DNA from: Escherichia coli
GTDB lineage: Bacteria > Pseudomonadota > Gammaproteobacteria > Enterobacterales > Enterobacteriaceae
DNA: 64,000 nt
Assembly: GCF_046105845.1 (NCBI RefSeq)
Contig: NZ_CP151004.1
Reading direction: 5' to 3' (one strand)
Positions 58,101 to 64,000 of the stretch are shown here, in pieces; within the stretch, counting starts at the first letter, position 1; the number at the start of each line of letters is the position of its first letter. The position numbers were made by a program.

Positions 58101-61100
58101 AGATGAATGAAGAGTTGCCGCTTCCAGGCTCTGTGGAAACACATCTGGTCCAGCGTGCGCAGGACTTTATTGGCGGGCAATGGTTGCTGGTGGATATCAA
58201 TATGAATCAATTCGAAGGTCGGGCTGAACGTATCAATATTACGATGCCAAAAAGATTACTGAACAAGATTGATACCTACGTGCGCAATAACCCAGACTAT
58301 GCCAACAGAAGTGCGTTTCTGGCGGAAGCTGCCCGGCGTGTATTGCCGGGCGTTTAATCTCGCGTTTCGATGGTTGGCGGGCAACCGCACCGATATGTTG
58401 ATACTGATAAGACGCGTTAAGCGTCGCATCATGCGCTGGTTTCCTCATTCACCCAGATCCGCATTTCGCCTTCACCCCGGTTGGCCCAGCTAAACCACGG
58501 GATAAAGGTCAGGGTTTGCGGCTGGCGTTTGGCTGGCGCACTGTCGTAATGCCACAGCGGTTGTTGTTCTGGATTGCTCTGTTCATACCGGTAACCCGGT
58601 GCCTGGATTAAGATCTTATGGCTGAACAATCCCTTACCTTCAAATGTCGTAAATGGCGCATCGGCGGGCAGCCACAGATTATGCAGTGACTCGCCGTTGT
58701 CGGCCTGTTCCAGGCAATACACCAGCGGGCCGCGCTGAATCGCCACTTTTCCGGCGACGTGACGCACCAGCGGGTTACCGTAAACGCGGCGTACCGGCAT
58801 CGGCAAAGTCAGATTCAGCGTATCGCCCTCCTGCCATTCGCAGGTAATGTGCAAATACCCTTTACGAATATCCTGCTCGACCTCTTCCCCATTCAATATG
58901 ATCTGCGGCTGTGTGCACCAGTCCGGCAGACGTAAAGCCAGCGTATGACGCACCGGCTGGGGCGATTCAACCGCAATTGTCACCTGTTCCTGCCACGGAT
59001 AGTTTCCGCTAACCCGCAGACGCAGCGTGCCATTTTCTACCGGCACTTCCATGCTGTTTCCTGCGTAGATGTTGATATACAACGCATCTTCACGCGGCGT
59101 GTAGAGATAATGACCAATCGAGGTTAGCACGCGGGCGATATTTGGCGGACAACAAGCGCAACCAAACCAACGCTGGCGGATCGGCTTAACGTGATCGTAG
59201 ATATGGTTGAATTTTAACGTTTTTGGATGCACTTCCAGCGGATTAACGTAGAAGAAATGTTTGCCATCCAGCGCCATGCCGCCGAGCACGGTGTTGTACA
59301 GTGCGCGCTCCATCACATCGGCATATTGACTGTCGCCTTCCATTTCCAGCATTCGCCGGGCGAACATCATCAGGCCGATGGAAGCACAGCTTTCGGCGTA
59401 TACCGTGTCATTCGGCAGATCGTAATCGCTGCTGAACGCTTCGCCGCTGCTTTGTGAGCCAATGCCGCCGGTAATATATAACTGACGCTGGGCCATATTG
59501 TTCCACAGCCGCAGGCAGTCCTGACGCTTGCTTTCATCGTGACTTAAACGCGCGAGATGCGCGACACCGGTCATCAGATATACAAAGCGTACTGCATGTC
59601 CGATGGCGGTTTGTTGCTGTGCGATGGGCAAATGCGCCTGGCTGTAGGCTTTATCTTTCACCATCCACGCCGGGCCGTAGGTGTGCCAGTGCGAGGTCTG
59701 CCCGCGCTTTTCATATTCCTGGTCGTAATAGTGCGGTTGCGCACCACGCTGTTCGACAAAATAGTTCGTCAGCGCCAGGTAGCGCGGCTCTTCGGTCACT
59801 TCATACAGGCGCATTAGTGCCAGTTCAATTTCCGGGTGACCAGGATAACCGTGTAACTTACTTTCACCTGGACCAAATACGCTGTCGATATGATCGGCCA
59901 GACGGCAAACCACTTCCAGCAAGCGCCGCTTGCCCGTGGCCTGGAGGAAGGCGACTCCGGCTTCAATCAGATGACCGGCGCAGTAAAGTTCATGACACTC
60001 CGCCAGATTGCTCCAGCGTTCTTCGGGCGCTTTTACCGTAAAGTAAGTATTGAGATAGCCATCTTCGCACTGGGCGGAAGCGACCAGTTCGATTACCTCG
60101 TCAGCGGTTTTTTCCAGTTCGGCATCCGGCTTCTGGCACAGCGACCAGGCTACCGCTTCCAGCCATTTGGCGACGTCGCTGTCCTGAAACACCATCCCGT
60201 AAAATTCACCGTCTTGCAGTCCTGCGGCAATGCGAAAGTTTTCAATCGCATGGCTGGGTTCCGCTTCTGGGATACGATCGTTCAAGGCATCCCACTGATA
60301 AGGAATCACCACGTCGCGGACCAGTTGTTGGTACTGACCGAGGAACGGATCGCTGACCGTCAGTTTATGCAGATCGACTTCCGAAATGTTCATCTTGTGC
60401 TCCTTAAGGCTGTACATGACGCTGACGCAGGTCGCTAGCTATGCGTGACATCATAGGGTTATTGAGTTTGCAAAAGCGGATCGCCATCGCCAGCAGCAGG
60501 TGGAATAGCGCAGGCAGCAATGTTTCCATCGCCGCGATCCCGCCAAGCGAACTGGCGGTCTGGTTTTCCACGCCTGGCTGGTAGGCGACAAAAATAAACA
60601 GCAGGCTGATGATCCCGGCGCTGGAGGCCCAGGCCAGCTTGATGAAAAACAGATTGAAGGCGAAGTTCATGCCGGAAGAACGTACGCGGGTTTTCCACTC
60701 GCCGTAGTCATCGGCAAAGGCCATCAATGAGAAGTGCAGTGGCAATGTGAAGCCAAGAATCACGCCATTACCGAGGATCACCGCCAGCCACAGCGTTTGA
60801 TAAGCCGGGCCGGAGGGCAGGAACCACATCAACACCGCCAGCGCGGCGAGGAGCAGGTTGGTGTAGTAGTAAATTTTGACGGTATCGAAACGCCGCGTTA
60901 ACGGGCTGACAATCACCGAGCCGATAATGGAGGCGAAGGTGACCATGGTGAAGAACAGCGACGTGTAGCCCGTACTGCCTTGTAAGACGTAGGTAATGAA
61001 GTACATATACCCACCGCCGCGAATATTAAAGACGTTAATCAGCAGGAAAGACATGACCAGCATCAGCAGCAGTTGGTCGTTGTTCCGCAGCCCGGCAAGA

Positions 61101-64000
61101 TGTTCGCGCAGGGTAAATTTCCCCATTGTGGAGAGTGGCACCCGTTCACGAACCCAGAAGAAACAGCACAGGAACATCACCACGGCAATGGCGCACAATA
61201 CGCCGACGCCCAGTTGATAGCCGCGCGCGGCATTACCCTGACCGAAGAGATCCACCATCCACGGCAGGCCAACCGAAACCAGAAATCCCGCTACGCCGCA
61301 GAGAACGAATCGCCAGGACTGGCAGGAGATCACTTCATTGTGGCGGGTGGTCATGGTGTTGATCAGCGCGCAGTACGGCACGTTGATGACGGTATAACCG
61401 ACTGAAAGGAGCAGGTAAGTGCCGAACGCCCAGGCGATTTTTACTCCCATGCTGGCATCTGGCACGGTGAACGTCAGGATGCCGATAATGCCGATGGGAA
61501 TGGCAATCCACAACTGCCACGGACGAAAGCGCCCCCAGCGACTTTGCGTCCGGTCGGCAATGACGCCCATCACCGGGTCGGAGATGGCATCAAACACGCG
61601 CAGTGCAATAAACAGCGTGCCGACCAGCGCCGGAGTTAAGCCAAAAACGTCGGTGTAGAAAAAGGTGAGAAAGTTCATGATCAGGCAAGTTATTACGGTG
61701 CCGCCTGCGTCACCCAGGCCGTAGCCTATTTTTTCCCGTACAGATAACGCATCGTCAATTTTACCTTTAGCGATATCAGCGGTAGTAATCGGTGTAGAGG
61801 TCATAGATATTCCTCGTGAATAGGGAGCAATTTTTAGTTTTATTGCAATGACCTGATTAATTCTGCCGTGAACGGGAATATCAACAAGGCGAGAAAAGAG
61901 TAAAAAAAGGTGACGATTCCGACCTGAATTTAAAAGTGTGAATTGGATCAGGTGAAATTAATGTTTTTGATTAATAATCAAAAGGTAATGTGTTTAATCA
62001 TTAATGAATAAGCGGGAAATTACATATCAATGCTCGAATTATCCATGACGTTACCGATTAAAGTGCAAAATGGTGGATTATTTATTTCCCGTGGCGTAGG
62101 GAGGCATCCGGCAAGGCGGCTGGAGTCATGGGAAATTATCTTTGTCGAAAAAGGTCGATTAACGATTCAGGAAGAAGAGCGGATATTTCTGGTCGATGCG
62201 GGAGAGAGTTTATTACTCTGGCCGAACCGACAGCATGTTGGGGTAGAGGATTTTCCCGCCGATCTCAAATTTTACTGGCTGCATTTTGAGGTTAAAGCGC
62301 CGGATAGCGACCCGCGCTGGCTCACTCATCTTAGCGTGCCGCAACAAACGAAGGTTGCCGATCCGCAGGCGCTGGTGGCCCTGTTTCGCCAGTTCTTAAG
62401 CGAACAGGAAAAGCATCAGCGCACTCCGGCGCTGGAGTTTATTGTGCTGCTGATTTTGCAGCAACTCACCCGTGACGCGCGTCTTGATGAACAGGCCGAT
62501 GCCGCAGGTACCACGCTTGCCTGGAAAGCGCAGAAACTGATCCGCACGCAATATCATCGCCCGCTTTCCACGGCGCTTTTAGCCCGCGAGCTGTACTGCA
62601 ATGCCGATTATCTTGGGCGCGTCTATCGGCGGGTGTTTCATCTGACGTTAACAGAAGCAATCCATCGCCAGCGAGTGCGCGAAGCCGAAAAGCTGTTAAT
62701 TAGCGAAGCGCGATCGCTCACTGAAGTGGCTGCGTTGTGCGGGTTTAATGACGTTGGCTATTTCCGGCAGATTTTTCGCAAACACACCGGTTTAACGCCA
62801 GCAGCGTGGAAGCGGCGTTACAGCAAGGAACATATCAATTCGTAGTGCCGGGGCGATGAAGCCCCGGCGTGAGGGATTACTGCCCGTAATAGGCATTGGC
62901 CCCATGTTTACGCAGGTAGTGCTTATCCAGCAGTTCGTTTTGCATCGCAGGGAGCTGCGGCGCAAGCTGGCGCGAGAACAGGCCCATATAGGCGCACTCT
63001 TCCAGCACTACGGCATTATGCACCGCATCGGCGGCGTTTTTACCCCAGGCGAACGGGCCGTGAGAATGCACCAGTACCGCCGGGATTTGCGCCGGACTCC
63101 TGCCGCGTTCTTCGAAAGTTTCAATGATCACTTCGCCGGTCTGGTATTCATACTCGCCGTTGATCTCCTCTGCGGTCATCTGTCGCGTGCAGGGGATGGC
63201 ACCATAGAAATAATCAGCGTGCGTGGTGCCCCAGGCGGGGAGATCCAGCCCGGCCTGCGACCAGATGGTCGCGTGGCGCGAGTGGGTATGCACAATGCCA
63301 CCGATTTCGGCATAGCGACGGTAAAGCGCCAGATGCGTTGGCGTGTCGGACGAGGGCTTTTTGCTGCCTTCTACCACCTTACCGCTGGCTATCTCAACCA
63401 CCACCATATCGTCGGCGGTCATCACGTCGTACTCGACGCCGGAAGGTTTGATTACCATCCATTGCCGCGCTTCGTCTACCGCGCTGACATTGCCCCAGGT
63501 GAACGTCACCAGATGGTGAGCGGGAAGCGCCAGATTCGCCGCCAGCACGTCGGCTTTCAGTTGCTCTAACATATAAAACCTGCCTCCTGCATACGCGCTT
63601 CAATCCAGCGCCGCGCCTGAATAATCTCCAGCACCGGCTCTTTGGCTTTTTCGGTCCACATCTCAATCAGGAAAGAACCGCGATAGTTCAGTTCATGCAG
63701 CGTTTTGAAGATGCCAACGAAATCGACGCAGCCTTCGCCAAACGGCACATCACGGAACTGTCCGGGGCTTTGCTCGGTAACTGGCTGGGTGTCTTTCAGG
63801 TGGATCGCGGCGATACGATCAATGCCCAGTTTCAGTTCGGCGGGAACATCATTGCCCCAGGCGCTGAGGTTGCCGACGTCCGGGTAGACGGTGAACCACG
63901 GCGAGGCGAGCCTCTCGTCCCATTTTTTCCATTTGCTGATGGAGTTCATAAACGCGGTATCCATAATCTCCACCGCCAGCATTACTTGTGATGCCGCCGC

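Follow-up and report, generated by a model that had tools for sequence, protein, structure and literature searches.

Escherichia coli has several gene pairs in which a GPH-family carrier is combined with a cytoplasmic glycosidase, namely YagG-YagH, YicJ-YicI, UidB-UidA, and MelB-MelA. Among glycosidases of family GH127, Ara127N of Geobacillus stearothermophilus belongs to a large arabinan-utilisation cluster. Another member of this family, HypBA1 of Bifidobacterium longum, works intracellularly on imported beta-Ara2 (PMC7263609). Its acid/base is E322, its nucleophile is C417, and its zinc ligands are E338, C340, C417, and C418 (PMC8106489). Here we describe a locus of E. coli in which a GH127 gene stands beside a GPH symporter gene and a divergent gene of an AraC-family regulator. 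These three genes (hereafter “the trio”) lie at positions 58429-62845 of a stretch of 64,000 nucleotides from contig NZ_CP151004.1 (assembly GCF_046105845.1). This whole stretch is called “the window” below.

We put at roughly 0.6 the probability that the trio serves for CRP- and activator-dependent import of small beta-L-arabinofuranosides and for their cleavage to L-arabinose in the cytoplasm. A first-pass annotation of the window had proposed a substrate-inducible uptake and hydrolysis unit for a glycoside of this kind. The logic of such a unit is supported by our analysis. A beta-L-arabinofuranoside-type substrate is still the best guess, the closest solved relatives of the hydrolase being Ara127N (54% identity) and HypBA1.

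The three genes and their predicted products

The genes of the trio are as follows:

62030-62845, plus strand: gene of an AraC/XylS-family regulator, 271 amino acids (open reading frame scan and Pfam)
60404-61804, minus strand: gene of a GPH:cation symporter, 466 amino acids (open reading frame scan and TIGR00792)
58429-60393, minus strand: gene of a GH127 cysteine glycosidase, 654 amino acids, 74.6 kDa (open reading frame scan and Pfam)

The open reading frame scan found all three frames where the first-pass annotation had placed them and in the same orientations, and the three families it had named were recovered by Pfam and TIGR matches far beyond chance. Its divergent layout is also supported: a two-gene operon on the minus strand (GPH, then GH127) faces the regulator gene. 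In RefSeq the genes already have correct names.

The longest open reading frame of the hydrolase is 58429-60417 on the minus strand, and a start at 60417 would give an overlap of 14 bp with the symporter gene. For near-identical strains, RefSeq uses the start at 60393 (MNISEV...). With this start there is a 10-bp gap after the symporter gene, which is the spacing originally reported. Upstream of it is the sequence TAAGGAG, in which TAA is the stop codon of the symporter gene. The short gap and the position of TAAGGAG over the stop suggest that translation of the GH127 gene is coupled to that of its neighbour.

The hydrolase has the domain composition of CAZy family GH127 (former DUF1680), i.e., a catalytic (alpha/alpha)6 domain (PF07944, 4e-111), a middle domain (PF20736, 2e-22), and a C-terminal domain (PF20737, 4e-25), covering residues 20-657. 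The Cys-rich signature noticed at first sight is indeed present. It consists of C336 and the motif GCACCPPN with C412, C414, and C415 (here and below in the numbering of the 654-residue protein). Residues E322, E338, C340, C417, and C418 of HypBA1 align with E318, E334, C336, C414, and C415, and the equivalents of its H142, H194, and H270 are retained as well. All catalytic and zinc-binding residues of HypBA1 are thus kept, and the predicted active site is intact. The best match among solved structures is Ara127N (PDB 4qjy), which scores 782 bits with a full-length identity of 54%, followed by HypBA1 (513 bits), 6ex6 (388 bits), and 5mqo (317 bits). Hydropathy analysis revealed no hydrophobic stretch or signal peptide at the N-terminus of the hydrolase; therefore we place the enzyme in the cytoplasm, like HypBA1. 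Its only NCBIfam match is the aceric-acid hydrolase model NF049879 (BT1003 type). We rejected this assignment because the score, 452 bits, is less than half of the cut-off of 950 bits and because 5mqo is matched with 317 bits against 782 bits for Ara127N.

The symporter matches TIGR00792 (“gph”) over residues 25-462 with 333.7 bits at a cut-off of 231.35, which places it in the GPH family (TC 2.A.2). Its Kyte-Doolittle profile has about 12 hydrophobic segments. The scores for particular subfamilies are all below the cut-offs: 355 bits of the required 610 for YagG, 328 of 836 for PRK11462, 211 of 456 for MelB, and 195 of 528 for the glucuronide transporter. Thus the protein represents a separate orthologue group of pentoside-type GPH carriers.

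The regulator belongs to the AraC/XylS family according to its matches to HTH_18 (4e-19), HTH_AraC (5e-8), and AraC_binding (2.5e-9). An N-terminal cupin ligand-binding domain is followed by a C-terminal double helix-turn-helix. It is not AraC proper, as it scores 61.5 bits with the equivalog model NF007860, whose cut-off is 208. Its identity to E. coli AraC is 23%, and the N-terminal arm is missing. Among the equivalents of the arabinose pocket R38 and W95 are kept, and Y82 and H93 are replaced.

Position of the trio, its loss and its distribution

In E. coli B, BL21-AI, AST215, and O157:H7 EDL933 the gene order is aldB-yiaW-yiaV-yiaU-yiaT-[GH127-GPH-AraC]-sgbE. The trio and yiaT-W coexist in these strains, so the trio does not replace yiaT-yiaW and is located between yiaT and sgbE. 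The first-pass annotation had put it into the yiaT-yiaW interval of K-12. This is not supported; in the window that slot is occupied by the toxin-antitoxin genes hicA and hicB (see below).

K-12 MG1655 has two annotated pseudogenes adjoining sgbE, ysaC and ysaD, which directly abut each other (positions 8814-9110 of locus L002). The former comprises the last ~34 codons of the AraC-family gene and corresponds to 62742-62845 of the window; the whole block aligned to 62742-62959 (ysaC, a terminator hairpin, and the end of sgbE) has 98% identity. The latter is an internal fragment of the GH127 gene, 90% identical to 58531-58720. It follows from these positions that K-12 has lost 58721-62741 of the window (4,021 bp) together with the 3' end of the GH127 gene. 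The initial interpretation relied on the module not standing at the same position in K-12. This was borne out by half: remnants do stand there, without intact genes.

We searched 5,426 complete E. coli genomes for these arrangements. The 4,021-bp segment is present, with identity of 96.8-99.2%, in 2,313 of them (43%). Its copies are all chromosomal and occupy 2,325 places in 2,324 genomes, with at most two per genome. The exact deletion junction of K-12 was found in 2,461 genomes (45%), and a junction-specific query detected the hicB-GH127 junction of the window in 489 (9%). K-12 and about 45% of E. coli have lost the trio by one shared deletion of 4,021 bp. Therefore the word “accessory” chosen in the first-pass annotation is right in the pangenome sense and wrong as to the origin, because the absence of the trio arises by loss.

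Beyond E. coli, a scan of one genome per species gave 277 relatives, of which we inspected the best 80. Among these, the trio is present in all but one of about 70 loci of Enterobacteriaceae with enough flanking DNA, the exception being a Buttiauxella locus with no match to the GPH gene (L074). The GH127 proteins of these enterobacterial loci are 72-97% identical. The genera with the trio include Citrobacter, Klebsiella, Raoultella, Enterobacter, Kluyvera, Leclercia, Lelliottia, Pantoea, Buttiauxella, and others; Salmonella enterica subsp. diarizonae has it too. Usually the trio is flanked by sgbE at one end and by aldB at the opposite end. The spacer between the GH127 gene and aldB is about 100 bp in S. 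diarizonae, Enterobacter cloacae, and Klebsiella indica; elsewhere it contains hicBA, yiaTU, yiaTUVW, or hicBA with yiaT genes. The trio coexists with yiaT-W in Citrobacter as well. The trio of Pantoea is isolated, with unrelated genes around it.

Several Bradyrhizobium species (L077-L081 and L084) encode GH127 proteins 72-73% identical to the enterobacterial protein, with no GPH or AraC-type gene nearby. In L084 the gene follows an open reading frame for an S9 (oligopeptidase B-like) peptidase. Transfer between phyla might account for these genes, or the enzyme may be used differently there. The neighbours in the non-syntenic hosts, Pantoea and Bradyrhizobium, gave no clue to the substrate: they are a diguanylate cyclase, dapA/bamC, a histidine kinase, and the S9-peptidase-like frame. 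One record titled Chryseobacterium sp. 18061 (L030) has the enterobacterial arrangement AraC-GPH-GH127...aldB with protein identity of 83-93% and is probably mislabelled or contaminated.

The slot between aldB and the GH127 gene is variable. In the window it includes the following features, with hicA and hicB identified by tblastn and translation and named as in RefSeq for the near-identical locus L001:

57745-57930, plus strand: hicA
57947-58357, plus strand: hicB
58400-58437, no strand assigned: palindrome of the repetitive extragenic palindromic (REP) type, abutting the GH127 stop codon and forming the right edge of the slot (sequence and fold)

The hicAB pair is not part of the module and fills the slot that yiaW-yiaT has in K-12. 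Neither hicA nor hicB matched any PADLOC model. A further REP is located at 57500-57535, and REP copies also flank the yiaW-yiaT block in E. coli B. Between aldB and yiaW, E. coli B has a remnant of the hicB 3' end (positions 2879-2980 of locus L004, 82% identity to 58274-58386 of the window). This remnant and the REPs that bound the slot in both arrangements suggest that hicAB predates the current yiaW-T configuration.

The last two or three codons of the GH127 gene run into the palindrome at 58400-58437. The protein ends with ...WVNEETSA in the window and with ...WVNEEKHRHPEVG in E. coli B. The tails differ because the window and E. coli B cease to be homologous at 58440, within the last GH127 codons. 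On the other side of the trio, EDL933 lacks the entire yiaK-sgbE operon beside the AraC-family gene and has only a fragment of an IclR-family (yiaJ/plaR-like) gene left (positions 11127-11267 of locus L003). Thus both flanks of the trio are prone to deletion.

Control region, proposed function and alternatives

The following elements were distinguished between and beside the genes of the trio:

61805-62029, no strand assigned: divergent control region, 225 bp, guanine-plus-cytosine (GC) content about 40%
61933-61952, minus strand: CRP-like site CCTGATCCAATTCACACTTT, a pattern match with 2 mismatches and the core GATC-N4-TCACA-N-TTT
61898-61925, minus strand: 28-bp block AGGTCGGAATCGTCACCTTTTTTTACTC just upstream of the -35 element, nearly invariant from Escherichia to Rouxiella
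61860-61887, minus strand: putative operon promoter with a weak -35 element TTGTTG, a 16-nt spacer, and the -10 element CAGAAT
61810-61815, minus strand: ribosome-binding site GAGGAA, downstream of the putative operon promoter
61967-61981, no strand assigned: palindrome TTGATTATTAATCAA with the core TTGATTATTAA on the regulator side, conserved in the alignment described below
62847-62868, no strand assigned: GC-rich hairpin GCCGGGGC-GATGAA-GCCCCGGC, which separates the regulator gene from the convergent sgbE, -20.8 kcal/mol

We aligned 71 enterobacterial loci and found discrete, sharply conserved blocks in the control region. The core of the CRP-like site is at least 90% conserved in these loci, across genera, and the centre of the site is about 90 bp upstream of the putative transcription start. 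The elements CCTTGTTG and GCA.AAT of the putative operon promoter are conserved too. Judging by its position, the 28-bp block would be the binding site of the AraC-family activator. The palindrome at 61967-61981 may be the -10 element (TAATAAT) of the regulator promoter or an operator. A promoter scan revealed no consensus sigma-70 promoter in the 225 bp, which fits activator dependence, and the layout resembles that of activator-plus-CRP promoters such as araBAD. The hairpin is likely a bidirectional terminator; K-12 keeps the same hairpin sequence beside its ysaC remnant. An Rfam scan of 57300-63100 found nothing significant.

The proposed route would operate as follows. A sugar ligand would be sensed by the cupin domain of the AraC-family protein, which together with cyclic AMP-bound CRP would activate the weak promoter of the GPH-GH127 operon. 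After crossing the outer membrane, a small glycoside would be imported by the GPH symporter. The cytoplasmic GH127 enzyme, presumably a cysteine glycosidase of the retaining type that contains a Zn(Cys3Glu) site, would then remove terminal beta-L-arabinofuranose, the activity of EC 3.2.1.185, and the released L-arabinose would enter the araBAD pathway. The likeliest natural substrates are beta-L-arabino-oligosaccharides such as Araf-beta1,2-Araf or Ara-hydroxyproline fragments. As the system has no extracellular releasing enzymes, the substrate would have to be freed by other organisms or by the plant. Other microbes could cut it from hydroxyproline-rich glycoproteins of plants, arabinan, or arabinogalactan proteins, and the host would be a scavenger. 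We infer the substrate from the 54% identity of the hydrolase to Geobacillus Ara127N. Putative, too, are the effector, the promoter, and the parts played by CRP and the activator.

Several facts weigh against this reading. Family GH127 also contains an aceric-acid hydrolase and 3,6-anhydro-D-galactosidases. It is polyspecific, so family membership alone cannot fix the substrate. With 23% identity to AraC and with several arabinose-contacting residues lost, the effector of the regulator is not deducible from its sequence. The CRP-like site has two mismatches and taken alone is not above chance; it carries weight because of its conservation. At this locus no enzyme for extracellular release (GH121, GH43) is encoded, and no transporter of the ATP-binding cassette (ABC) type like that of Bifidobacterium. 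According to a study of Xanthomonas, homologues of hypBA2 and hypAA are absent from Escherichia and Salmonella (PMC6085000). In the searchable literature, enterobacterial members turned up neither in enzyme assays nor in growth tests or induction experiments. The publications on the enterobacterial genes, ysaC/ysaD, and b4648/b4649 are limited to mentions in pangenome and association studies and one RNA-seq listing. In particular, GH127 is described as a non-core CAZy family of E. coli with clade-dependent prevalence (bioRxiv 10.1101/2021.10.19.464957), and it is reported to co-segregate with invasiveness among isolates from inflammatory bowel disease (IBD) (PMC11879602); both works take the function from homology to HypBA1. 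The RNA-seq study of BL21 lists the GH127 protein WP_001026900.1 among four genes that are up 4-5 fold, together with lacZ (PMC6561948), which shows that this orthologue is transcribed.

The same architecture might have another specificity, for aceric acid, 3,6-anhydro-D-galactose, a glycoside of a plant secondary metabolite, or some other furanoside or unusual sugar, and the GPH carrier would then bring this compound into the cell. The polyspecificity of GH127 speaks for this, as do the aceric-acid hydrolase model being the sole NCBIfam match (452 bits), the similarity of the carrier to uncharacterised YagG-type pentoside carriers as its nearest relatives, and the lack of nearby genes for enzymes releasing beta-arabino-oligosaccharides. 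Still, we consider it rather unlikely, since the match to that model is below half of its cut-off, the scores with Ara127N and HypBA1 are much higher than that with 5mqo, and the catalytic residues, zinc ligands, and all three histidines of HypBA1 are retained.

Two other explanations concern the origin and the fate of the trio rather than its substrate. A recently acquired accessory island that has replaced yiaT-yiaW in the window strain would agree with the absence of yiaT-W from the window, with the lack of an intact trio in K-12, and with its presence in only 43% of complete E. coli genomes. This seems highly improbable to us. The trio coexists with yiaT-W in four E. coli strains and Citrobacter, K-12 has remnants at the same site, and the synteny from sgbE to aldB is kept across genera. 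There are no mobility genes at the locus, the GC content of the module is 53-56%, and its copies are chromosomal and almost always single. The synonymous substitution rates (Ks) of the three genes are comparable to those of the flanking aldB and sgbE. On these grounds a horizontally acquired island was rejected, and the trio is best described, from sequence comparison, as an old, vertically inherited enterobacterial unit adjoining a variable slot. Alternatively, it might be a decaying non-functional relic on the way to the loss seen in K-12. The repeated or wide-scale loss, with the K-12 scar in 45% of genomes, and the variation of the GH127 C-terminal codons with the adjoining sequence could be read in this way. 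We give this idea very little credence, because all three reading frames are complete, in the window as in each orthologue that we examined, and contain no internal stop, and the ratios of nonsynonymous to synonymous substitution rates (Ka/Ks) are low (0.04-0.14 for the AraC-family gene, 0.03-0.10 for GPH, and 0.03-0.08 for GH127), a sign of purifying selection. Moreover, no active-site residue is lost, conservation extends to the regulatory blocks, and the gene is transcribed in BL21.

If the trio does serve for the use of beta-L-arabinofuranosides, E. coli would have a route for scavenging plant glycans, from beta-L-arabinofuranosides to L-arabinose, which would bear on its ecology in the gut and on plant surfaces. 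We suggest tentatively, at somewhat less than even odds, that those E. coli that keep the trio (B/BL21, O157:H7, and many extra-intestinal and IBD isolates) and most other Enterobacteriaceae grow on beta-L-arabinofuranosyl di- and oligosaccharides freed by bifidobacteria or Bacteroides from dietary extensins, arabinan, or arabinogalactan proteins. Such cross-feeding would be invisible in K-12 because of its 4-kb deletion. If so, the trio would be a niche determinant that separates wild strains from the laboratory reference, and this would bear on the reported links of E. coli GH127 to clades and invasive IBD isolates.

The expression host BL21 would then have a 75-kDa beta-L-arabinofuranosidase of its own, and background activity would be possible when beta-L-arabinofuranosidases are expressed in BL21-based systems. 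The B/BL21 lineage has an intact trio; its GH127 protein is WP_001026900.1, with 659 amino acids and 75.5 kDa (positions 6694-8673 of locus L004 in E. coli B and 1673-3652 of locus L086 in BL21-AI). One publication (PMC10728902) describes an unexplained band, about 75 kDa in size, that an activity-based probe for beta-L-arabinofuranosidases labelled in a preparation of BtGH146 produced in E. coli, and attributes it to proteolysis. The host GH127 is an alternative candidate for the source of the band.

Neighbouring observations and comparison with known systems

Some other features of the window were observed in passing. Between yiaY and aldB, at 54526-55821, there is a gene of a 431-residue Fic-family protein that matches the PADLOC model of the SoFic anti-phage system (E 3e-44). 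This gene is present in EDL933 and absent from K-12 and E. coli B. The yiaY allele (53245-54396) shares only about 83% of its nucleotides with its counterparts in the E. coli strains under comparison. For the stretch with yiaY and the Fic gene (52900-55900), the best identity among the 5,426 complete genomes is 90.5%, unlike the GH127 module and sgbE/sgbU, which are 98-100% identical to some strains. By these identities the locus appears strongly mosaic. Four CRP consensus sites with 0-1 mismatches are located within 180 bp at 45653-45829, which we take to be, probably, the multi-CRP promoter of the mannitol gene mtlA.

The enzyme and the carrier of the trio belong to known families, its regulatory logic is known as well, and the RefSeq names are correct. 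Thus the trio is an uncharacterised orthologue group and not a new kind of system. The window hydrolase and HypBA1 of B. longum are both intracellular GH127 enzymes according to our prediction, and they share the Cys nucleophile, the Glu acid/base, and the Zn(Cys3Glu) site. By analogy, the trio would correspond to the intracellular half of the hypBA system, with L-arabinose released in both from a small substrate that the cell has imported. However, hypBA uses an ABC importer, whereas the trio has a GPH symporter and an AraC-type regulator. We rejected the description of the locus as a Bifidobacterium-type hypBA cluster, since it has no GH121, no GH43 HypAA, and no ABC importer of beta-Ara2, and its neighbours are hicAB, aldB, and sgbE.

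HypBA1 is more distant from the window hydrolase than Ara127N of G. stearothermophilus T6 (513 vs 782 bits). The latter enzyme (4qjy/4qk0) agrees with the window hydrolase in its three-domain layout and active-site motifs, although it comes from a Gram-positive thermophile. The pairs of the YagG-YagH type in E. coli share the two-gene design, a GPH:cation symporter beside a cytoplasmic exo-glycosidase, but their glycosidases belong to GH43, GH31, GH2, and GH4 instead of GH127. The closest parallel in control is provided by araBAD. Its AraC has the N-terminal arm and Y82/H93, unlike the armless, 23% identical regulator of the trio. In both cases, however, a divergent gene encodes an AraC-family protein with cupin and helix-turn-helix domains, the operon promoter is weak and, in the trio presumably, activator-dependent, and a CRP-like site lies upstream of the (in the trio, putative) activator site.

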